Shown: positions 7,302 to 25,963 of the stretch, one piece after another
How the letters are laid out: each line of letters begins with the position of its first letter
How positions within the stretch are numbered: the stretch's first letter is position 1
NCBI GenBank assembly: GCA_050699415.1
Contig: JBOHDO010000135.1
Location: 112-64,111, forward strand
From: Marmoricola sp.
Lineage (GTDB): Bacteria; Actinomycetota; Actinomycetes; Propionibacteriales; Nocardioidaceae
DNA length: 64,000 bases
Reading direction: 5' to 3'
The notes under the pieces: model-generated
Database searches by the model: none
The model's input: only the letters and a program-made list of their open reading frames with translations
Told to the model about the DNA's origin: nothing
Translations under genes and position numbers: made by a program

Positions 7302-8327
7302 ATGGTCGAGCACGATCCGGGCCGCGTGGTCTGCCTCGGTGAGGCACTCGTCGTGCTGCGCCCGGACCGGCCCGGTGGCCCGGGTGCGTCGGACCTGCTG
7401 CGCTGCTCGGTCGGCGGCGCCGAGGGCAACGTCGCCGGCGCCCTGGCCGACATGGGGGTGGACACCACGTGGGTCTCGCGGCTCGGGGCCGACCCGTTCG
7501 GCGACCTCGTCGAGCGCGACCTGCGGGCGCGTGGGGTTCAGGTGGTGGCCGAACGCGACCCGGACCGCGTGACCGGGGCGTACCTCAAGGACTCCGCAGC
7601 CACCGGGAGCCGGATGTTCTACTACCGCACCGGGTCGGCGGCCTCGGTGATGGACGGTGGGCTGCTGGCCGAGCCCGAGGTCGCCCGGCAGCTGGCGAGC
7701 TGCCACCTGGTCCACAGCTCGGGCATCACCGCCGGCATCCTCGCGCCGGACTCCGACCTGTTCGCCCGGCTCGTCGAGGCGCGCGAGCGGCACGGCTTCC
7801 TGCTCAGCATCGACCTCAACTGGCGTCCGGCGGTCTGGCGCGGTCGGGACACCCGGGCACTGCACGAGCTGCTCGGCGCGGCCGACGTGCTCCTGCTCGG
7901 CGCCGACGAGGCCCGGGCGGTGCTCGGCACGTCCGATCCCGCCGGGTTGCGCCGGATCGTGGGTCCGCGGCCCCGGCTGGTGGTCAAGAGCGACTCCCAC
8001 GCCGCGACCGAGGTGGCACCCGACGGTCGCAGCACCCGGGTCCCGGCACTGGACGTCGAGGTGGTCGAACCCGTCGGCGCCGGCGACGGGTTCGCCGCCG
8101 GGTACCTGGCCGGCCTGCTCGGTGGGTACGGCGCGACCCAACGGCTCCGGCTGGGCCACCTGGTCGCGGCCGGCGTGCTCGCCGAGCCCGGTGACCACGC
8201 CCACCCGCCGGCGGCCGACGTACGCCGCGCGCTCGTCGGCGCCACCGCGGAGGACTGGCGCGCCACCCGCGTCGGACCGGACGGGATCGGCTCCCCCGCC
8301 CTGCACGCCATCGGAGGGTCGCGATGA
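7302..8327 (+). CDS. PfkB-family sugar kinase, KdgK-like
   Basis: GGAEGNVAGALA, RLGADPFG, IDLNWRP, VGAGDGFAAG. Confidence 0.9.
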   Translation: MVEHDPGRVVCLGEALVVLRPDRPGGPGASDLLRCSVGGAEGNVAGALADMGVDTTWVSRLGADPFGDLVERDLRARGVQVVAERDPDRVTGAYLKDSAATGSRMFYYRTGSAASVMDGGLLAEPEVARQLASCHLVHSSGITAGILAPDSDLFARLVEARERHGFLLSIDLNWRPAVWRGRDTRALHELLGAADVLLLGADEARAVLGTSDPAGLRRIVGPRPRLVVKSDSHAATEVAPDGRSTRVPALDVEVVEPVGAGDGFAAGYLAGLLGGYGATQRLRLGHLVAAGVLAEPGDHAHPPAADVRRALVGATAEDWRATRVGPDGIGSPALHAIGGSR

Positions 8328-9091
8328 GCCAGAGCCTCGCACGCGCGCTGGCCATCCTGGGCGAGCTGGGCGCCGGTGAACGTTCCCTCGACGACCTGGC
8401 CGGGTCGCTCGACGTGCACAAGACCACCGTGCTCCGGCTGTTGCGCACCCTGGAGTCCGACCGCTTCGTACGCCGCGACGACCACCACCGCTACACGCTG
8501 GGCTCACGCCTGTTCGAGCTCGGTGCCTCCTCCCTGGAGCAGCACGCGGTCCGCGACATCGCGCTCCCCCACCTGCGCAGCCTCGGACGGGAGACCGGCG
8601 GCCAGGCGGTGCACCTGGCCGTGCTCGAGGGCGACCACGCGGTCTACGTCGCCAAGGTGGAGAGCACCAACCCGGTGCGGATGTACTCCCAGGTGGGCCT
8701 GCCCGCTCCCGTGCACGCCACCGCGGTCGGGAAGGTGCTCGCCAGCGACCTCCCCGAGCGGCAGCTCTCCGCGCTCCTGGCGGACCTGGACTACCACGCC
8801 TTCACCGCCCGCACCATCACCGACGAGAGCTCGTTCCGCGCCGCGCTGGCCGAGGCCCGCGAGCGCGGCTGGGCCGAGGACGCCGCGGAGCACGAGGACT
8901 TCGTGAACTGCATCGGGGCGCCGGTCCATGACCCGTCCGGCCGGGTCGTCGCCGCAGCGTCGATCTCGGTGCCGACCGTCATCTTGGACCACGACCGTGT
9001 CCGGGCACTGCTGCCCAGGCTGCTGGCGACCACGGCCGCGGTCGAGGCCGCCTGGGCAGGCGAACCCACCACCGAGAGGAGCAGCACATGA
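8324..9091 (+). CDS. IclR-family transcriptional regulator
   Basis: SQSLARALAIL HTH start, HATAVGKVL, RERGWAED..E...CIGAPV. Confidence 0.93.
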   Translation: MSQSLARALAILGELGAGERSLDDLAGSLDVHKTTVLRLLRTLESDRFVRRDDHHRYTLGSRLFELGASSLEQHAVRDIALPHLRSLGRETGGQAVHLAVLEGDHAVYVAKVESTNPVRMYSQVGLPAPVHATAVGKVLASDLPERQLSALLADLDYHAFTARTITDESSFRAALAEARERGWAEDAAEHEDFVNCIGAPVHDPSGRVVAAASISVPTVILDHDRVRALLPRLLATTAAVEAAWAGEPTTERSST

Positions 9092-9492
9092 CCAAGACCG
9101 CCGTTCGCACCGACCAGGCGCCGGCTCCCGCACACGCCTACGGACAGGGGGTGGCCAAGAACGGGCTCCTCCAGGTGTCGGGCCAGGGCCCGGTCGACCC
9201 GGCCACCGGCCAGTACGTCTCCGAGGGCGACGTGGCCGCGCAGACCAGCCGCACGCTGCACAACGTCGAGGCCATCCTCCACGCGGGTGGTGCCACCCTG
9301 TCCGACGTGGTGATGCTGCGCGTCTACCTGGCCTCGCGCGAGGACTTCGCCGCGATGAACGAGGCGTACGCCGGCTTCGTCGCCGAGCGCATCGGACCCG
9401 ACGAGGCGCCGCCGTGCCGGACCACCGTCATGGTGGGACTGCCGCGGCCCGAGATGCTCGTCGAGATCGACGCCCTCGCCGTGGTCGGCTGA
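9088..9492 (+). CDS. RidA/YjgF/UK114 family protein
   Basis: AYGQGV, VSGQGP, FAAMNEAY, PPCRTTV...LVEIDALAV. ATGA overlap with the IclR gene. Confidence 0.92.
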   Translation: MTKTAVRTDQAPAPAHAYGQGVAKNGLLQVSGQGPVDPATGQYVSEGDVAAQTSRTLHNVEAILHAGGATLSDVVMLRVYLASREDFAAMNEAYAGFVAERIGPDEAPPCRTTVMVGLPRPEMLVEIDALAVVG

Positions 9493-16829: not shown

Positions 16830-18110
16830 CTACGAGCTCGACTGCCCCCGGCGAGCCAGCGCGTCCACGGTCACGGCGGCCAGCAGCACCAGCGCGGTCA
16901 CCATGAACTTCGTGGCGGCCGACAGGTTGATCAGTCCCATCCCGTTGTCGATGGTCGCGATCACCACGCCGCCGAGCAGCGCGTGCACCATCTTGCCCCG
17001 GCCGCCGAACAGGCTGGTGCCCCCGATCACCGCCGTCGCCACGGCGTACAGCACCAGCTGGCCGCCGTCGACGTTGGCCGAGATCGAGCCCAGCCGCGCG
17101 GCGTAGATGATCCCGGCCGCGCCCGCGGTCAGGCTGCACAGCGCGAACCCGGCCACCCGGATCCGGCCCAGGTTGATGCCGGCGCGTCGGGCGGCCTCCG
17201 CGTTGCCGCCGATCGCGTACACGTACCGGCCGAACCGGGTCCGGGACAGCAGGATGGTCCACAGCACCACGATCACCAGCACGATCGGGATGTCCCAGGG
17301 CACGCCGTTCACCACGGTGAACCCGACGCCCCGGTTCACGCCGCAGATGACCACCAGCACGATCCCGGCGACTGCCACCGCGACGATCTTCGCGACGGTC
17401 AGCCCGAACGGCGGCACGGCCAGGCCGGACCTGCGCAGGCTGCGGTCCCTGACGAGCAGGATGCCGGCGAACAGCACCACCGAGACCGCGAGCACGATCC
17501 AGGCCGCGGTCATCGGCAGGCTGCTGTTGACCAGGGCGTTGACGTACGCCGGGTCGCTGATGGTGCCGCCGCTGGACTTGCCGCCGAAGCTGTCGATCAG
17601 GAACAGCAGCAGCCCCTGGAAGCCGAGCAGCCCGGCCAGGGTGACCACGAACGAGGGCACCCGCAGCCGCACGATGATCAGGCCCGTCATTGCGCCAATG
17701 GCGGCGGGCACGCCCAGCCCCACCAGGATCGCGGGCAGCCACGGCCAGCCGTGCATCGCCGACAGCCACACCGTGAAGAACCCGCCGACCGCGCCGACGA
17801 AGCCGGCGGACAGGTCGATCTCGCCGAGCAGCAGCACGAACACCTCGGCCATGCCGAGCAGCACGTAGACGCCCGCGTCCTGCGAGAACAGGTTGGTCAG
17901 GTTGCCCCCGGTCAGGAACTCCGAGCTCTGGGTCTGGAAGATCACGACGATGACCACCAGGCCGACCACGACCGGGACCATCCCGCTCTCGCCGCTGCGG
18001 GCACGGCGCCACCAGGCCGCGGTGTACTCGCGCAGTGACCCCGCGAGGACCTCCTCGCCCTCGACCTGCGGGGGTGTGGGCTCCTCCAGGTCCGCCTTGG
18101 TCGTCGTCAT
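16830..18110 (-). CDS. Sugar ABC transporter permease (XylH/GguB-like)
   Basis: LLGEIDLSAG, LRVPSFVVTLAG, TRFGRYVYAIGGNAEAARRAGI, VIGGTSLFGGRG. Confidence 0.95.
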   Translation of the reverse strand: MTTTKADLEEPTPPQVEGEEVLAGSLREYTAAWWRRARSGESGMVPVVVGLVVIVVIFQTQSSEFLTGGNLTNLFSQDAGVYVLLGMAEVFVLLLGEIDLSAGFVGAVGGFFTVWLSAMHGWPWLPAILVGLGVPAAIGAMTGLIIVRLRVPSFVVTLAGLLGFQGLLLFLIDSFGGKSSGGTISDPAYVNALVNSSLPMTAAWIVLAVSVVLFAGILLVRDRSLRRSGLAVPPFGLTVAKIVAVAVAGIVLVVICGVNRGVGFTVVNGVPWDIPIVLVIVVLWTILLSRTRFGRYVYAIGGNAEAARRAGINLGRIRVAGFALCSLTAGAAGIIYAARLGSISANVDGGQLVLYAVATAVIGGTSLFGGRGKMVHALLGGVVIATIDNGMGLINLSAATKFMVTALVLLAAVTVDALARRGQSSS

Positions 18111-18898
18111 CGCCCCTCCTCCCCTGCGCGCTCGCCTGTTCGCAGAGACTTCCTGCCGGTGGTGATCAGCTCGACCACGCTCTGGGTGTCGTAGTCGCCG
18201 GCCGGTCCGCTCTCGGCCATGGCACCCAGGTGCAGGACGGCGATCCGGTCGGCCACCTCGAAGACGTCGTTGAGGTTGTGGGAGATGATCAGCACCGCGA
18301 TGCCCCGGCTGCTCAGCCGCTTGACCAGGTCGAGCACCATCTCGGTCTGGGAGACGCCCAGCGCCGCGGTCGGCTCGTCCAGGATCACGAGCCTGGCCTC
18401 CGCCATCACCGCCCGGGCCACCGCGACGGCCTGCCGCTGGCCGCCCGACAGCGACCGCACCAGCTGGCGGATCGACTTCACCGTGGTCACGTGCAGGTCG
18501 CGCAGGGTCGCGCCCGCCTCACGCTCCATCGAGGGCTCGTCAAGGAACCGGTTCCTCACGTGCTCGCGCCCCAGGAACATGTTCTGCACGATGTCGAGGT
18601 TGTCGCACAGCGCCAGGTCCTGGTAGACCGTGGCGATCCCCGCCGAGTAGGCGTCCCTCGGCGAGTGGAAGCGGACCGCTGACCCTTCCCAGACGACCTC
18701 GCCGCCGTCGGGGTCCCAGATCCCCGAGACGGTCTTGATCAGGGTGGACTTCCCGGCTCCGTTGTCCCCCACCAGGGCGGTGACCTGCCCGGCCAGGATG
18801 TCCAGGTCGACCCCCTTGAGGGCCTGGACCGGGCCGAAGTTCTTGACGACGCCCCGCAGCCGCAGCAGCGGGGCGTCGTCAACGGTGACGGTGCTCAC
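18107..18898 (-). CDS. Sugar ABC transporter ATP-binding protein (single NBD)
   Basis: Walker A GDNGAGKS, VYQDLALCDNL, LSGGQRQ, ILDEP, ISH. GTG start about 18898. Confidence 0.95.
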   Translation of the reverse strand: MSTVTVDDAPLLRLRGVVKNFGPVQALKGVDLDILAGQVTALVGDNGAGKSTLIKTVSGIWDPDGGEVVWEGSAVRFHSPRDAYSAGIATVYQDLALCDNLDIVQNMFLGREHVRNRFLDEPSMEREAGATLRDLHVTTVKSIRQLVRSLSGGQRQAVAVARAVMAEARLVILDEPTAALGVSQTEMVLDLVKRLSSRGIAVLIISHNLNDVFEVADRIAVLHLGAMAESGPAGDYDTQSVVELITTGRKSLRTGERAGEEGR

Positions 18899-18905
18899 CA
18901 GGGGT

Positions 18906-20129
18906 TCACTTGATCCCGTACTTCGCACACGCCTTCGCGTACTTGCCCTTGCACAGCTGGCTCACCGGCACGAACTTGTCCGCCACGATGGTGCTCTCCA
19001 TGTTCTTCGGAGTGACCCACTCGGGCTTCAGCAGCACCGACTTGACGGCCTTGTGCTCCTTGGTGTCCTGGGTGGTGCCGTTGACCAGGTCGCTCGGCGG
19101 GGTCACCCCGGCTCGCAGGTAGACGCCCAGCGCGGCGGCCGCCTGCGCCTCGAGGTAGATCGGCTTGTACGCCGTCCCGCACTGGTAGCCGGTCAGGATG
19201 TTCTGCAGGCCCACCAGGGTCGCGTCCTGGCCCGTCACCGGGAAGGAGTTGGGCTTGACGCCCTGCGACTGCAGGTAGTTGATGATCGGCGCCGCGTTCT
19301 CGTCGTTGGGCACCAGCACCGAGTTGACGCCCTTGTTCGCGGTCAGCGCCTGCTGGAACTCGGTCTCCGCGGTGGGCGGGTCCCAGGTCCCGGCCGGCGT
19401 GGCGGCCTGCTTCCAGCCCGAGGAGAACTTCGGCTTCAGGACCCCGTCGTAGCCCTGCGCGAACAGCGTCGCGTTGTTGTCGGTGGGGTCACCGCGCATC
19501 ACGATCATGTTCGGGTTCTTGACCCCCCACTTGCTCGCGCAGGAGACCATGCCGTTCCCGATCAGCTTGCCGACCTCCACGTTGTTGAAGCTGACGTAGT
19601 AGTCCCGGTCCCCACCCAGGGTGAGCCGGTCGTAGTCGATCACCTTGGCGCCGTGCTGGGTGCCGTACTTCTCGATCTGGGCGCCGACCCCGGCGTCGAG
19701 GGGGTCGACGATGAGCACCGAGGCGCCGTTGGTGATGTCCGACTGGGCGTCGGTCAGCTGGGTGCTGTCGCTGCCGTGTGCGTTCTGGACGATGTAGTCA
19801 CCGGAGGACAGGCCGGCCTTCTGGAAGGACTCCTTCAGGTACGGCGCGTCGAACTCGGTGTAGCGGGCCGAGGTGGTGGTGTCGGGCAGGATCACCGCGA
19901 TCTTGCCCTTGCCCTTCTTGACCAGTCCGGACAGCTTGGACATCGCCGAGAAGTCGTTGGTGAACGAGCTGACCGTGAGGTTCGGCACCTTGGCCCCGGA
20001 GGACCCGGACGAGCCCGAGCCTCCGCTGCCGCCGGCACTGCCACCGCTCCCGCCGCTGCCACAGCCGGCGGCCAGGACCGCGGTCGCCGAGAGCGCCGCG
20101 ACCATCGAGAGACTGCGAGACACGCGCAC
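18906..20129 (-). CDS. Sugar ABC substrate-binding lipoprotein (XylF/ChvE-like)
   Basis: Lipobox LAAGC, ARYTEFDAP, IDYDRL, YVSFNNVEVG, NDENA, VTGQDA, AYKPI. Confidence 0.93.
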   Translation of the reverse strand: MRVSRSLSMVAALSATAVLAAGCGSGGSGGSAGGSGGSGSSGSSGAKVPNLTVSSFTNDFSAMSKLSGLVKKGKGKIAVILPDTTTSARYTEFDAPYLKESFQKAGLSSGDYIVQNAHGSDSTQLTDAQSDITNGASVLIVDPLDAGVGAQIEKYGTQHGAKVIDYDRLTLGGDRDYYVSFNNVEVGKLIGNGMVSCASKWGVKNPNMIVMRGDPTDNNATLFAQGYDGVLKPKFSSGWKQAATPAGTWDPPTAETEFQQALTANKGVNSVLVPNDENAAPIINYLQSQGVKPNSFPVTGQDATLVGLQNILTGYQCGTAYKPIYLEAQAAAALGVYLRAGVTPPSDLVNGTTQDTKEHKAVKSVLLKPEWVTPKNMESTIVADKFVPVSQLCKGKYAKACAKYGIK

Positions 20130-20205: not shown

Positions 20206-20270
20206 ACGCTAGTGAGAGTGCCGTGAACGGCGCGTGAACAATTCCGCTACGGCGTGAACAAAGCGTGAAC
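20206..20270 (-). promoter_or_regulatory. Four direct repeats (GTTCACG on the minus strand) plus -10 TAGCGT; putative response-regulator-activated promoter of the ABC operon
   Basis: CGTGAAC at 20222, 20233, 20253 and 20264 (spacing 11, 20, 11). ACGCTA at 20206-20211 reads TAGCGT on the minus strand. Confidence 0.75.
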
Positions 20271-20281
20271 GAGCCGGGTTG

Positions 20282-20992
20282 TCAGCCCGGATTCGAGACC
20301 AAACGGTAACCCGCACGCGGCTGGGTCACGATCAACGGCTCGCCGCCCTCGGTCTCCAGCTTGGCTCGCAGCCGCCGGATGTAGACCCGCACGTACTCGG
20401 TCTCCGTGGCGTAGCCCGGCCCCCACACCCGTCGCAGCAGCTGCGCGTGGGTGAGCAGCTTGCCCCGGTTGGTCACCAGCTCGCGCAGCAGCGCGAACTC
20501 GGTGGGCGTCAGGTGCACCGGCTGCCCGGCGCGACTGACCCGCTGGTCGCCCAGGTCGACCTCGAGGTCGCCGACCTCGATGACACCGGCGACGTCGGGC
20601 TGCGGTGTGACCGAGCGGGTACGCCGCAACGTCGCGGTGATCCGGGCGAGCAGCTCCTCGATGCCGAAGGGCTTGGTCAGGTAGTCGTCGGCCCCCATGT
20701 TCAGGGCGGTCACCTTGTCCCACTCCCCGCCACGGGCGGAGACCACGATCACGCCCACGCTGGACCGCTCCCGGATCCGGCGGCACAGCTCCATGCCGTC
20801 GGTGTCGGGCAGCATCAGGTCGAGCAGCACGATGTCGGGCTGCTCGGTCTCGAGCAGCCGCAGCACGTGCCCACCCTCCGGCGCCACGACCGTGTCGAAG
20901 CCACGCACGTTCAGGTTCGACCGGATCAGGTCGACGATGTTGGGGTCGTCCTCGACCACCAGGACCTTGGTGCGTGGACGGTAGTCAGTCAT
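20282..20992 (-). CDS. OmpR-family response regulator (KdpE-like)
   Basis: LVVEDD, LLDLMLP, GADDYLTKPF, winged helix LTPTEF...RRVWGPGY..ETEYVRVYIRRLRAKLE. Confidence 0.95.
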   Translation of the reverse strand: MTDYRPRTKVLVVEDDPNIVDLIRSNLNVRGFDTVVAPEGGHVLRLLETEQPDIVLLDLMLPDTDGMELCRRIRERSSVGVIVVSARGGEWDKVTALNMGADDYLTKPFGIEELLARITATLRRTRSVTPQPDVAGVIEVGDLEVDLGDQRVSRAGQPVHLTPTEFALLRELVTNRGKLLTHAQLLRRVWGPGYATETEYVRVYIRRLRAKLETEGGEPLIVTQPRAGYRLVSNPG

Positions 20993-23453
20993 CGACTGCC
21001 CCCGCGGCCATCACCGGCGGCTCCTCCGCGGCGGCTTCGGGCTCGACGGGAAGGTCGACCGCGAAGCACAGGCCCGGATCGGCCTGTTCGGCCTGCATGC
21101 TGCCCCCGTGCGCCGCCACGATCGCCCGGCTGATCGACAGCCCGAGGCCGGCCCCCGCGGTGGCGGGGCGGGGTGTCGCAGGGGTGTCCGGCTGGCCGAG
21201 CCGCTCGAGCCGGCCGTCGCCGTCGTCGCGGACCCGGACGGTCACGGTCCGGTCGCCGGCCGCCGCCCGCAGCCACACCCGCGTCCCCGGCGGGTTGTGC
21301 CGGAACGCGTTGTCGAGCAGGTTCACGAAGACCTGCTCCAACCGGTCGTGGTCGGCCCAGATCGGTGGCAGGTCGACCGGTACGTCGACCTCGACCCGTG
21401 GCCTGACCGCGACCGCCAGGCAGTCGCGGGCAGCCTCGAGCACCAGCCGCAGCTCGCACCAGTCGTGCTGCAGCCGCAGGATGCCGGTCTCGATCGTGGA
21501 CAGGTCCAGCAGGTCTCCCACGAGCCGTGCCATCCTCCGCGACTCGACGGCGATGCGGGTCAGGAACCGCTCCCGGGAGTCGCTGTCCCAGTCGACATCG
21601 GGCTGCAGCATCGTGTCGGCGTACCCGGTGATCGCGGTGAGCGGCGTCCGCAGCTCGTGGGAGAGCCTGGCCAGGAAGTCGTGCTGCAGCTGCTGGGTAC
21701 GCCGCAGCGCCGCGGCCTCCTGCGTGGCCTGCTGCGCGCGGTGACGGGCCATCGCGAGCTGCACCGAGTGCGCGGCGTCCTCGACCAGGGCCCGCTCGTC
21801 GGGGTCGGCCGGCTCTCCGTGCCGCGCCACCAGCAGGGCCGCGACCTCCGTGGGGTCGGCGAAGGTGACCAGGTGGAGCCAGCGGTCGTGGCCTGCAGGA
21901 AGCGTCGCCGCGGTGCCGTGGTCGGCGGCCCCGGCGCGGTGCTGCTCCACGACCCGGGCCAGCGCGGTGCCGTCCACACCCTCGTCGGGCTGCCCCGCGA
22001 CACCGGCCAGGGCCAGTTGGCCACCCGACGCCGCGGCCGAGTAGACCGCGACCGACTCGGCGCCCAGGCCACGGCGCAGCACCTCAAGCGCCGTGCGCAG
22101 CGACTCACCGACCGGCGCCGGTCCCCCCAGCGTCTCGAGCATGTCCCGGATCGTCTCCAGCACCAGGTTGCGCGAGGTCAGCTGGCCGACCAGCCGTTCG
22201 CGCTCCAGCGCCGCGGACAGGTAGCCGCCGTACAGCTGGGCCAGGTCCAGCTCGGCCCTGGTGGGGTCGCCGATCCGGGTGCGAAGCACCGTGATCACCC
22301 CGCTGCTGGCATCCGACCCGCCGAAGGGGACCGACCAGGAGCTGGCGACCCGCTGCTCCCAGAGCCGGCGGCGCATCCCGGACCAGGCCTCGGCCGTCCG
22401 TACGTCGCTGACCAGCTCGGGTTCGCCCGTGCGGGCGGCACGACCGATGGCGCCGCCCTCGGACCCGGTCCCGACCAACCGCCATGCCCGACACAGGCCC
22501 TCGGGCAGCCCGAGCGAGCACGACAGCCGCAGCCTGCCCGAACCGTCGGCCAGGTGCAGCGCCAGCCGGTCCGCGCCCAGCGCCGCGCCGAGCGCGGACA
22601 GGACGACCAGTGGTGCGGAGGTGGGGTCGGCGGTCGCGAGTCGCCCGCGCAGCGCGTGCAGCCGGGTGAGCTGGTGATGCGCCGAGCTCTCCGGTGGGTG
22701 GCCCGAGGCCAGCGCCAGTACGTCGTCGGGGTGGCCGCTGACCGGGTCCACCTCTCCCACCACCCGCCCGTGACGCAGCACCACGATCCGGTCGGCCAGG
22801 CCGAACAGCTGCTCGAGGTCGTGCGAGACCACCACCACCGCGCAGCCCTCGACCTGCACCCGGCGCACCAGCCGCTCGACCCGGCCGGTGTCGGTGGTCC
22901 CGAGCGGGTCGGTGGGCTCGTCGAGCAGCAGCAGCCGCCGTGCGGCGATGAGGGCCCGGGCGACCACGAGCAGCTGCCGCTGCACCACGGCGAGGCTGCC
23001 GGCCGTGGCCGTGGTCGGGCCCAGTCGGGCCGCGAGGCCCAGGTCGGCGAGCAGCCGGCGGGCCAGCTCGTGCCGGCTGACCGCCGAGCGCAGCAGCCGC
23101 CAGCGGGGTTCCGCACCGAGCAGCAGGTTCTCGGCGATGTCGAGGTTGTCACACAGCGCGGTGTGCTGCCAGACCAGCGCCGGGGAGGTGTCGGTGCCCA
23201 GGTTGACCCGACCCGCCATCGGCGAGAGCTCGCCGGCCAGGCAGCGCAGCAGAGTGGACTTGCCGGCTCCGCTCTCGCCGGCGATGCCCAGGATCTCCCC
23301 GGAGCCGACCTCGAGGTCCACGCCGTCGATGCCGATCACCCGGCCGTACCCGGCGCGCAGGGCACGGACGACGGCCGCCGGGTCGGAGCGAGGCGCCCGC
23401 CCTGCGATGGGCTCCCCGGCCCGCCGGCTCGTGAGGAAACCGCCAGGTCGCAC
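20985..23453 (-). CDS. Soluble sensor histidine kinase with an N-terminal ABC ATPase domain (NBD-GAF-GAF-HisKA-HATPase_c), 822 aa
   Basis: Walker A GESGAGKST (23253-23279), Q-loop VWQH, LLLDEP, VSHD; two GAF-like segments; LSHELRTP (His599); NLLDNAFRH; GAGLGL. No TM helix. -10 CATAAT 6 nt before GTG. Confidence 0.9.
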   Translation of the reverse strand: MRPGGFLTSRRAGEPIAGRAPRSDPAAVVRALRAGYGRVIGIDGVDLEVGSGEILGIAGESGAGKSTLLRCLAGELSPMAGRVNLGTDTSPALVWQHTALCDNLDIAENLLLGAEPRWRLLRSAVSRHELARRLLADLGLAARLGPTTATAGSLAVVQRQLLVVARALIAARRLLLLDEPTDPLGTTDTGRVERLVRRVQVEGCAVVVVSHDLEQLFGLADRIVVLRHGRVVGEVDPVSGHPDDVLALASGHPPESSAHHQLTRLHALRGRLATADPTSAPLVVLSALGAALGADRLALHLADGSGRLRLSCSLGLPEGLCRAWRLVGTGSEGGAIGRAARTGEPELVSDVRTAEAWSGMRRRLWEQRVASSWSVPFGGSDASSGVITVLRTRIGDPTRAELDLAQLYGGYLSAALERERLVGQLTSRNLVLETIRDMLETLGGPAPVGESLRTALEVLRRGLGAESVAVYSAAASGGQLALAGVAGQPDEGVDGTALARVVEQHRAGAADHGTAATLPAGHDRWLHLVTFADPTEVAALLVARHGEPADPDERALVEDAAHSVQLAMARHRAQQATQEAAALRRTQQLQHDFLARLSHELRTPLTAITGYADTMLQPDVDWDSDSRERFLTRIAVESRRMARLVGDLLDLSTIETGILRLQHDWCELRLVLEAARDCLAVAVRPRVEVDVPVDLPPIWADHDRLEQVFVNLLDNAFRHNPPGTRVWLRAAAGDRTVTVRVRDDGDGRLERLGQPDTPATPRPATAGAGLGLSISRAIVAAHGGSMQAEQADPGLCFAVDLPVEPEAAAEEPPVMAAGAVDD

Positions 23454-24418: not shown

Positions 24419-25963
24419 TCAGTTGACCTGGCGGTCGCGGTCCTCCCAGTAGGGCGCGCGCAGCTTGAACTTCTGCAGCTTGCCGGTCGCCGTCCGGGCC
24501 AGCTCGTCGCGGAACTCCACCGACGTGGGCGCCTTGTAGCCGGCCACCCTGGACTTGCAGTACTTGATCAGCTCGTCCTCGGTCAGCGAGGACCCGTCGG
24601 CCCTGACCACCAGCGCCTTGATGGTCTCGCCCCACTTCTGGTCGGGCACACCGATCACCGCGACCTCGTTCACGTCGGGGTGGGAGAAGATCACGTCCTC
24701 GACCTCGATCGACGATACGTTCTCGCCGCCGGTGATGATCACGTCCTTCTTGCGGTCGCTGATCGAGAGGTAGCCGTCCTTGTCGATCTCGCCGCCGTCG
24801 CCGGTGTGGAACCAGCCGTCCGCCAGGCAGCGCTCGGTCTCCTCCGGCTGCTGCCAGTAGCCCTCGAGGATCACGTTCGACCGCGCCAGCACCTCTCCCC
24901 CGGGCGCCACGTCGAGGCTGACGCCGATGGCCGGCATGCCGGCCCGGACCAGCCGGGAGGCCCGCTCCTGGGGCTCGAGGTCATCCCACTCCTGGCGGGT
25001 GCGGTTGATGGTCAGCAGCGGCGAGGTCTCGGTGAGACCGTAGATCTGCACGAACTCCCAGCCGAGCTCCTGCTCGACGCGCGCGATGGTCGTGGTCGGC
25101 GGCGGGGCACCGGCGACGATGATCCGCACCCGGTCGCGGCCGGGGCTGTTCCCACCCGGGATGGCGCCGTCCCAGTCCTCGGCGGCGGCGAGTACGGCGT
25201 TGACCACCGCGGGTGCGGCGCACATCGCCGTCACGCCGTACTTCTCGACCCGGCGGAGGATCTCCGCGCCGTCGACCTTGCGCAGCACCACCTGCGGCAC
25301 GCCCATGCCGGTCATCGCGAACGGCATCCCCCAGCCGTTGGCGTGGAACATCGGCAGCGTGTGCAGGTAGACGTCGCGGTCGGTGACGCCGGCATGCAGC
25401 GCGAACGTGACGGCGTTGACCCAGATGTTGCGATGGGTGATCTGCACGCCCTTCGGCCGGGCGGTGGTCCCGGAGGTGTAGTTGATCGTTGCGGTGGCGT
25501 TCTCGTCCGGCTCCCAGGCCCGGGGCTCGGTGCCCTCCAGGAACAGCGCGGAGTCCTCGCCGATCTCGAACTTGTGCTCGCACTCCACCCCGGAGACGGT
25601 CTGCACCAGCTCCGGGTCGTAGAACAGCACCCGGGCGCCGGAGTGCTCGACGATGTAGCCGATCTCGTCGGGCGAGAGCCGGAAGTTGACCGGCACCAGC
25701 ACCCGGCCGTAGCCGCAGACCCCGAAGAACGCGGTGTAGAGCCGCGCGCTGTTGTGCGACACGATCGCGACCCGGTCGCCGGGGTCGAGGCCGAGCTGGT
25801 CGAGCCGCGCCGCCATGGCCCGGGCGAGCTCGCCGACCCGACGGTAGCTCAGCTCACCGAGCGAGGCCGCCGGCTGGTCGGGCTCGTCGGCGATGCCGGT
25901 GCGGTCGGCGTAGCCCGCGAGCGCCCGGTCGAGGAAGTCGTTGACGGTGAACGGCACGAGCAC
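24419..25963 (-). CDS. AMP-binding acyl-CoA synthetase
   Basis: YTSGTTARPKG, YGLTET, FHTGD, DRKKDVIITGGEN, GKLQK. Confidence 0.95.
   Translation of the reverse strand: MLVPFTVNDFLDRALAGYADRTGIADEPDQPAASLGELSYRRVGELARAMAARLDQLGLDPGDRVAIVSHNSARLYTAFFGVCGYGRVLVPVNFRLSPDEIGYIVEHSGARVLFYDPELVQTVSGVECEHKFEIGEDSALFLEGTEPRAWEPDENATATINYTSGTTARPKGVQITHRNIWVNAVTFALHAGVTDRDVYLHTLPMFHANGWGMPFAMTGMGVPQVVLRKVDGAEILRRVEKYGVTAMCAAPAVVNAVLAAAEDWDGAIPGGNSPGRDRVRIIVAGAPPPTTTIARVEQELGWEFVQIYGLTETSPLLTINRTRQEWDDLEPQERASRLVRAGMPAIGVSLDVAPGGEVLARSNVILEGYWQQPEETERCLADGWFHTGDGGEIDKDGYLSISDRKKDVIITGGENVSSIEVEDVIFSHPDVNEVAVIGVPDQKWGETIKALVVRADGSSLTEDELIKYCKSRVAGYKAPTSVEFRDELARTATGKLQKFKLRAPYWEDRDRQVN

Follow-up and report, generated by a model that had tools for sequence, protein, structure and literature searches.

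The 64,000-nt stretch of the Marmoricola sp. contig JBOHDO010000135.1 analyzed in this study (hereafter, the window; genome GC content, 73%) was found to carry a five-gene module, encoded entirely on the minus strand, in which a soluble sensor histidine kinase bearing an ATP-binding cassette (ABC) nucleotide-binding domain (NBD) is accompanied by a response regulator, a binding protein, a transporter ATPase, and a permease. The last three were predicted to constitute a CUT2-type monosaccharide importer, and the gene arrangement suggests that the kinase may read this transporter directly. Based on sequence features and on analogy with characterized systems, we give about an even chance to the reading that the module operates as a transporter-coupled two-component sensor, in which the NBD would dock the kinase on the module's permease and report ATP-dependent NBD closure. 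The module consists of the following genes.

20985..23453, minus strand: soluble sensor histidine kinase, 822 aa (open reading frame; Pfam ABC_tran, GAF, HisKA, and HATPase_c; AlphaFold2 model)
20282..20992, minus strand: OmpR/PhoB/KdpE-type response regulator (Pfam Response_reg and Trans_reg_C; NCBIfam)
18906..20129, minus strand: lipoprotein sugar-binding protein, XylF/ChvE-like (Pfam Peripla_BP_4; NCBIfam xylF and ChvE below cut-off)
18107..18928, minus strand: single-NBD CUT2 ATPase, 273 aa, every motif canonical (Pfam, NCBIfam)
16830..18110, minus strand: CUT2 permease, GguB/XylH-like (Pfam BPD_transp_2; NCBIfam GguB, 5e-58)

The regulator start overlapped the kinase stop by 8 nt, and a 152-bp gap separated the regulator gene from that of the binding protein, whose translation displayed a lipobox (LAAGC). 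The first-pass annotation of this DNA had taken the transporter ATPase for a single-NBD protein, and Pfam indeed detected one NBD in it. The two fused NBDs typical of CUT2 ATPases were thus present in neither protein, the kinase and the ATPase carrying one each.

In the kinase, Pfam assigned ABC_tran to residues 43-181, GAF (GAF/GAF_2) to residues 284-416, HisKA to residues 591-657 (64.9 bits), and HATPase_c to residues 701-804 (64.7 bits). In the AlphaFold2 (AF2) model, which was built on 40 homologues and showed a mean pLDDT (predicted local distance difference test) of 84.8, the domains were arranged in the order NBD (27-235), helical linker (242-292), GAF, long connecting helix, second GAF-like domain (448-545), a spine helix that leads into the DHp domain, and, last, the catalytic domain. 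The span to which the first-pass annotation had drawn attention, 22700-23375, corresponds to kinase residues 27-251, i.e., to the NBD.

22749..23375, minus strand: kinase ABC NBD, residues 27-235 (Pfam PF00005, 71.7 bits against a cut-off of 25; AF2 pLDDT mostly >90)
22578..22730, minus strand: family-specific helical linker between NBD and GAF, residues 242-292 (AF2 helices 242-250, 258-274, and 277-292)
21819..22568, minus strand: GAF 296-391, connecting helix 399-443, and second GAF-like domain 448-545 (Pfam GAF/GAF_2; AF2; Foldseek)
21042..21683, minus strand: HisKA 591-657, with the phospho-accepting His599, and HATPase_c 701-804 (Pfam)

Within the linker, residues Q261, L262, R264, and L265 were conserved. 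The hallmarks of the HisKA class were all present, namely the H-box His, the N, G1, and G2 boxes, and a regulator gene that was adjacent in all loci; H599 (H599-E-L-R-T-P), N715, D743/G745/G747, and G767-G771 were invariant across 40 homologues. Meanwhile, the kinase showed no transmembrane segment, its top 19-residue hydropathy value being 1.53 as compared with 2.79 for the permease. Since the kinase is soluble, an external sugar signal would require a membrane partner. A Foldseek search with the AF2 model returned bacteriophytochrome kinases as the top matches (full-length, over the sensory spine residues 296-804) and also isolated NBDs, and neither this search nor a structure search found a solved structure in which an NBD and a kinase are combined. 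The kinase is expected to be a homodimer, and its two NBDs could pair with each other as well as with the ATPase, the two arrangements being equally possible.

A search of 5.8 billion proteins yielded more than 3000 matches to the kinase, and the best 120 all had the architecture ABC_tran-GAF-HisKA-HATPase_c with 48-59% identity. These homologues originated from Marmoricola/Nocardioidaceae, Streptosporangiaceae, Trebonia, Acidimicrobiales, and many soil metagenomes; their database names were generic only, and a cluster look-up found no cultured organism. In a linker/GAF profile search against 1.84 billion representatives, multi-GAF proteins swamped the ranks below the first few dozen, so that the family size is a rough figure. 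A genome scan with the full-length alignment caught generic kinase motifs, about 10 of its 80 loci belonging to the true family (L020 and L030 were dropped as non-orthologous), and the scan was repeated on metagenomes with fusion-specific linker/GAF alignment patterns, which gave 80 contigs.

The order kinase-regulator-binding protein-ATPase-permease was observed in all genome loci with a full-length kinase (L001-L007, L009, and L081-L083) except L005, the L001 locus running out inside the binding-protein gene. The five-gene order was seen in genomes of Nocardioidaceae, Solirubrobacterales, Streptosporangiaceae, and other Actinomycetota, and was complete in 25 of the 80 metagenome contigs, the shorter contigs agreeing with it to their ends; overall, two exceptions were encountered (L005 and L092). 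In nearly all loci, genes for a BPD_transp_2 permease and a Peripla_BP_4 binding protein adjoined the kinase module, and the regulators of related loci were 62-81% identical. In addition, the relatedness of the kinase NBDs tracked the transporter subtype (41 of 45 nearest neighbours). In these gene neighborhoods, the kinase is locked in synteny with the CUT2 transporter.

Variants of the module were also observed. A divergent binding-protein subtype (approximately 44% identity) occurred in ten or eleven loci (L121, L132, L150, L157, L135, L139, L152, L156, L160, L161, and L166), among which L121, L132, L150, and L157 carried two permease genes; this implies that a heterodimeric membrane part would be served by a single ATPase gene. 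At L005 (13000-17200), the module had no ATPase gene of its own, and the binding-protein gene was followed directly by a frameshifted permease gene and then by a gene for a major facilitator superfamily (MFS) transporter; this locus may be a decaying copy, may reflect a sequencing artefact of a long-read metagenome-assembled genome (MAG), or may encode a permease served by the kinase NBD or by another ATPase. At L092, the regulator gene was followed by a sigma-70 family gene and a gene for a large AAA/TPR/BTAD regulator, making this locus the sole clear case of the kinase-regulator pair apart from the importer.

The 152-bp gap of the window was found to contain a repeat array.

20222..20270, minus strand: four direct repeats GTTCACG at 20270, 20259, 20239, and 20228 (spaced by 11, 20, and 11 bp), a candidate operator for the regulator

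The repeats preceded the start codon of the binding-protein gene by 93-141 bp. In related loci, the array recurred with the consensus GTTnAC at offsets 0, 11, 31, and 42: GTTnAC sites numbered 94 against 14±3.3 in shuffled sequence, and 11 exact 11-bp pairs were counted against 0.03 expected. It was likewise located between the regulator and binding-protein genes in L081, L001, L090, L148, L107, and L150. OmpR/PhoB-family regulators usually have operators made of direct repeats one helical turn apart. The GTTCACG array is thus a likely operator of the OmpR-type regulator, and the two-component system most probably governs expression of the transporter operon. A scan for consensus promoters and terminators gave no matches and is uninformative at 73% GC.

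The kinase NBD had previously been described as a close paralogue of the neighboring ATPase, with near-identical DNA. The two domains were found to share 37% protein identity over 237 aa (BLASTP E 9e-33) and 51.9% DNA identity over 774 nt, and identical codons were used at 51 of the 90 identical residues, as compared with 52.3±4.2 expected from local codon usage. The run GCGCTGTG[T/C]GACAACCTCGACATCG, matching at 25 of 26 bases (about 23134-23159 and 18590-18613), was real; over the whole NBDs, however, the near-identity did not hold, codon sharing being at chance. The short match is explained by a conserved eight-residue peptide together with the GC codon bias of the genome, and a recent duplication or gene conversion behind it was rejected on the basis of the low nucleotide identity and of codon sharing equal to the codon-bias expectation.

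The best NCBIfam matches of the kinase NBD were the N-terminal halves of the CUT2 ATPases YtfR, AraG, XylG, GguA, and RbsA. In a neighbour-joining tree (253 columns, 100 bootstraps) comprising the kinase NBDs, the partner ATPases, the E. coli N- and C-halves, and a LivF/LivG outgroup, the kinase NBDs were monophyletic (bootstrap 83), as were the partner ATPases (89), and the branching within each clade followed the same locus groups. Both clades sat with the N-half-like CUT2 sequences, apart from the C-halves and LivF/LivG, rather than in unrelated parts of the tree, as the proposed relationship had required; a sister relation between the two clades lacked resolution in this tree. Kinase NBDs were on average 36.9% identical to partner ATPases and 29.4% identical to E. 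coli N-halves. Because the kinase NBDs and the ATPases form separate, co-diverging clades, their paralogy, although real, is ancient rather than close, and goes back to before several actinobacterial orders diverged.

Apart from the Walker motifs, kinase NBDs and partner ATPases had their longest run of identical residues in QDLALCDNLD, which spans the Q-loop and the following helix. Its ALCDNLD portion, common to the kinase NBDs and the partner ATPases, was absent from the E. coli CUT2 ATPases and from the unrelated CUT2 ATPase of L005. In structures of MalFGK2-type (type I) importers, the Q-loop segment lines the cleft that receives the coupling helix of the permease. Given the solubility of the kinase and the stretch QDLALCDNLD common to its NBD and the ATPase, we propose that the kinase NBD would dock on the cytoplasmic face of the module's permease, at the site of the ATPase, using the Q-loop surface that it has in common with the latter. 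Outside the cell, the sugar-loaded binding protein would drive ATP-dependent NBD closure, which would be relayed via the helical linker and the GAF spine to the DHp domain, and the phosphorylated regulator would in turn bind the GTTCACG repeats and set transporter expression. The dimeric kinase body might thereby take the structural role that is held by the C-terminal regulatory domains in MalK-type ATPases. In a further-reaching form, which we hold tentatively and at somewhat under an even chance, the soluble kinase would sense across the membrane by plugging a paralogue of the ABC motor domain (a "decoy NBD") into the docking site of a sugar importer's permease, either by itself or in an asymmetric dimer with the ATPase, so that the transport cycle driven by the binding protein would be read out directly as kinase activity.

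Several observations weigh against such direct docking. The docking surface was mapped by analogy only, a sequence search of the PDB having found no structure for the permease family, and the negative controls for the specificity of ALCDNLD were few (four E. coli ATPases and three other flank P-loop proteins). Plain operon regulation also explains the synteny, and L092 (5500-11700) carries the kinase and regulator without a downstream transporter. Furthermore, the actual sensor could be the GAF domains, through binding of a ligand inside the cell, the role of the NBD then being secondary.

In another explanation, the kinase is a free cytosolic sensor of ATP or energy charge: the NBDs of the kinase dimer would close on ATP without the permease and gate transporter expression, while the GAF domains sense a sugar or metabolite. 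The invariant ATP-binding residues, the soluble and presumably dimeric kinase, the tandem GAF module as an alternative ligand sensor, and the L092 locus, where no transporter is adjacent, are all in line with it. This explanation leaves unaccounted for, however, the CUT2 paralogy and the retained Q-loop/coupling surface of the partner ATPase, as well as the near-constant linkage to this transporter type; moreover, a self-closing dimer requires the signature motif, which has been lost in 27% of the family members. We therefore regard a free ATP sensor as rather improbable.

The motifs of the kinase NBD were then compared over 198 non-redundant kinase NBDs and 34 partner ATPases from the same loci. 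In the window, the kinase showed the ABC motifs GESGAGKST, VWQ, LLLLDE, and SHD, with LAVVQ in place of the signature LSGGQ. Inspection of the translations bore out the peptides quoted in the first-pass annotation, LAVVQRQ in the kinase versus LSGGQRQ in the transporter; the neighboring ATPase reads VYQDLALCDNLDIVQNMFLG and LSGGQRQ.

23253..23279, minus strand: Walker A GESGAGKST, residues 59-67, intact (Lys invariant, 198/198)
23195..23196, minus strand: position of an 11-residue deletion preceding the Q-loop, between kinase residues 86 and 87 (alignment)
23115..23174, minus strand: Q-loop and next helix, VWQHTALCDNLDIAENLLLG, residues 94-113 (Gln invariant, 198/198; stretch common with the partner ATPase)
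22974..22994, minus strand: degenerate signature LAVVQRQ, residues 154-160 (variant unique among the 198 family NBDs)
22899..22934, minus strand: Walker B and D-loop LLLLDEPTDPLG, residues 174-185 (Asp and Glu intact and invariant, 198/198; D-loop atypical)
22818..22826, minus strand: H-loop SHD, residues 210-212, intact (His kept in 190/198)

The 11-residue deletion was common to the nearest clade (P0001-P0012) and coincided there with the strongest signature degeneration, the segment being retained in more distant members and in the partner ATPases. The D-loop of the window protein reads DPLG (22899-22910, residues 182-185), with DP replacing A-S/A; among 120 homologues this was seen in the window protein alone, A-[AS]-L-G being the usual form in most kinase NBDs and partner ATPases, and DPLG is a second lesion on the NBD-NBD contact face. 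The canonical LSGGQ was kept in 144 of the 198 kinase NBDs (73%), and on a distance tree the non-canonical remainder (27%) must have arisen through nine or more independent changes. The strongest degeneration was found in the Nocardioidaceae clade of the window (LAVVQ, LSEAR, LNDAR, LTDAR, LSRSR, and LTGAK). Thus, the degenerate signature noted earlier holds for the window protein and its near clade, while as a family-wide trait, or a founding asymmetry, it was rejected. In the partner ATPases, all motifs were canonical (34/34; Fisher p = 9e-5 for the signature versus the kinase NBDs). In the Solirubrobacterales loci L002, L003, L004, and L007, the H-loop His was replaced by Arg and Walker A read GEPGAGK, with a nearly canonical signature; this lesion lies on the opposite half of the catalytic site as compared with that of the window clade.

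Since the Walker A Lys, the Q-loop Gln, and the Walker B Asp-Glu were kept in all 198 sequences and the H-loop His in 190, the kinase NBD is under purifying selection, and its neutral decay across homologues, which would have undermined the earlier proposal, was ruled against. A vestigial NBD, drifting neutrally and functionless in the window lineage, might be read from the destroyed signature, the altered D-loop, and the 11 deleted residues of the window protein. Nevertheless, the ATP-binding and catalytic residues were all intact, the AF2 fold was confident, and between the window and its nearest genomic relative, L081, the NBD was 59% identical, above the GAF region (50%) and near the kinase core (65%), which makes this explanation scarcely credible.

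These motif patterns instead suggest that the window-lineage NBD has retained its own ATP site and has lost the face that completes the site of a partner, as judged from LAVVQRQ, DPLG, and the 11-residue deletion. With that face lost, a symmetric catalytic dimer would not be supportable; the NBD can presumably bind ATP and perhaps hydrolyze it with a donated signature. A comparable asymmetry is known from the tandem CUT2 ATPases (RbsA, XylG, MglA, and AraG; TC 3.A.1.2), which belong to the same NBD subfamily and the same tree supergroup as the kinase NBD. In agreement with the first-pass annotation, their N-halves in E. coli combine a good Walker A (GENGAGKST) with degenerate signatures (LSIGDQQ, LGLGQQQ, LSVSQMQ, and LSIGQWQ, respectively). 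The C-halves are the reverse, showing Walker A Lys → Arg, Q-loop Gln → Glu, and H-loop His → Ser changes with the signature LSGGNQQ. The window NBD resembles the N-halves in its consensus Walker A and in the bulky residues of LAVVQRQ (cf. LSVSQMQ and LSIGDQQ). Unlike the tandem enzymes, however, the kinase NBD is single and fused to a histidine kinase, and most members of its family keep the canonical signature; unlike the C-halves, the companion ATPase is without complementary degeneration.

On this pattern rests the explanation first put forward for this locus, in the specific form of which the kinase NBD and one ATPase subunit would form a heterodimer on the permease, coexisting as a sensing complex with the transporting ATPase homodimer. 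In such a pair, the site formed by the kinase Walker A and the ATPase LSGGQ would be active, and that formed by the ATPase Walker A and the kinase LAVVQ impaired. The motif pattern is compatible with it: the kinases with wrecked signatures (LAVVQ, LSEAR, LNDAR, LTDAR, LSRSR, and others) keep their own catalytic Glu, Walker A Lys, and Q-loop Gln (43/43 each) and mostly the H-loop His (37/43), as expected with a donated LSGGQ, and this favors the heterodimer over a dead homodimer, because in the latter Glu and His would drift freely. The E. coli N-halves described above provide a precedent, in that signatures such as LSVSQ function there in asymmetric dimers, and the D-loop A-[AS]-L-G is common to most kinase NBDs and partner ATPases. 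On the other hand, the D-loop of the window protein is itself altered, the prevalence of fully canonical NBDs in the family (73%) indicates that the asymmetry is derived and not ancestral, the partner ATPases show no complementary degeneration (34/34 canonical), and in Solirubrobacterales the lesion falls on the other side (H-loop His → Arg, signature nearly intact). In addition, a homodimeric histidine kinase with NBDs at the ends of its dimeric spine favors self-pairing of the NBDs, and its geometry resembles that of importer NBDs held by C-terminal regulatory domains. Overall, the heterodimer seems to us possible but unlikely.

A stronger version, in which transport would occur only with the kinase-NBD/ATPase pair, as though a tandem CUT2 ATPase had been split in two and the kinase NBD were an obligate second motor subunit, agrees with the N-half-like features of the window NBD (good Walker A, degenerate signature) and with L005, where the module has no ATPase gene of its own. 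The partner ATPase, however, is fully canonical and is N-half-like rather than C-half-like, single-NBD CUT2 ATPases exist without a kinase (e.g., the second system in L005), and L005 itself stands alone, its permease gene, which comes from a MAG, being frameshifted. We consider a split motor very unlikely.

Returning to the transporter-coupled sensor, its nearest functional analogues are the Bce-type modules, PhoR/PhoU/PstB, MalK-MalT, and CbrA/CrbS, and the nearest sequence relatives of its NBD are the CUT2 ATPases. To our knowledge, the known transporter-coupled kinases all either touch the transporter non-covalently or are fused to a permease. In PstSCAB-PhoU-PhoR and MalK-MalT, the state of the importer NBD is relayed to the regulator of the same regulon through a non-covalent contact from the working ATPase, mediated by PhoU or by the MalK regulatory domain. 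In the present module, unlike these systems, the kinase polypeptide itself includes a dedicated paralogous NBD.

In the flux-sensing Bce modules (BceAB and BceS), the kinase lacks a sensing domain and is considered to monitor transporter activity (PMC10314905, PMC9169098). The module resembles them in that the genes of an ABC transporter lie together with those of a two-component system, transporter expression being the output. In the Bce systems, however, the transporters confer peptide resistance and have a large extracellular domain, and the kinase is embedded in the membrane and contacts the permease, whereas the module here comprises a sugar importer with a binding protein and a soluble kinase with its own NBD, the contact of which would be the NBD docking site. 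In agreement with this distinction, the permease belongs to BPD_transp_2, and the kinase lacks transmembrane segments, as opposed to the two transmembrane helices of Bce kinases. The transporter-fused sensors CbrA/CrbS contain an SLC5 domain, STAC, and a kinase in one protein (PMC5715377), and likewise exemplify a transporter-derived domain fused to a histidine kinase as the input module; there, the membrane permease of a secondary transporter is fused, whereas in the present kinase the fused part is the motor domain, cytoplasmic in location, of an ABC (primary) transporter, the permease remaining separate.

KdpD/KdpE provides a further likeness, namely a histidine kinase with an N-terminal nucleotide-binding domain that controls an adjacent transporter operon. 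The GAF and kinase core matched the C-terminal part of KdpD (E 1.2e-32; 112.9 bits versus a cut-off of 1123), and the regulator matched KdpE (E 5.8e-58, below the family cut-off). The N-terminal domain of KdpD, however, belongs to another P-loop family (PF02702), and KdpD also has Usp and four transmembrane helices; Pfam detected neither PF02702 nor Usp in the kinase, from which transmembrane helices were also absent, setting it apart from KdpD.

The module would thus represent a variant within the known transporter-coupled two-component sensing, its new part being the motor-domain paralogue as a kinase input. A paralogue of the ATP-hydrolyzing motor domain itself here forms the input module of a kinase; together with its transporter, it has been conserved in several actinobacterial orders, and it is frequent in soil metagenomes, yet the generic family name "ATP-binding cassette domain-containing protein" conceals a regulatory kinase. 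A full-text literature search of non-exhaustive coverage found no description of an NBD-fused histidine kinase architecture. If the docking proposal is true, it would offer a simple route by which sugar outside the cell could signal to a cytosolic kinase, a natural experiment separating the NBD motifs needed for signaling from those needed for transport (the signature lost at least nine times, the ATP-binding site never), and a candidate modular design for biosensors from ABC importers. If the decoy-NBD reading is true, the kinases would constitute a new input class of two-component systems.

In the surroundings of the module, an AMP-binding (acyl-CoA synthetase-like) gene was located at 24419-25963 of the window on the minus strand, its counterpart region in L081 being 7782-9344. 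AMP-binding and MFS transporter genes were present near the module in both the window and L081, at differing positions, an indication that the DNA surrounding a mobile five-gene unit has been locally rearranged.

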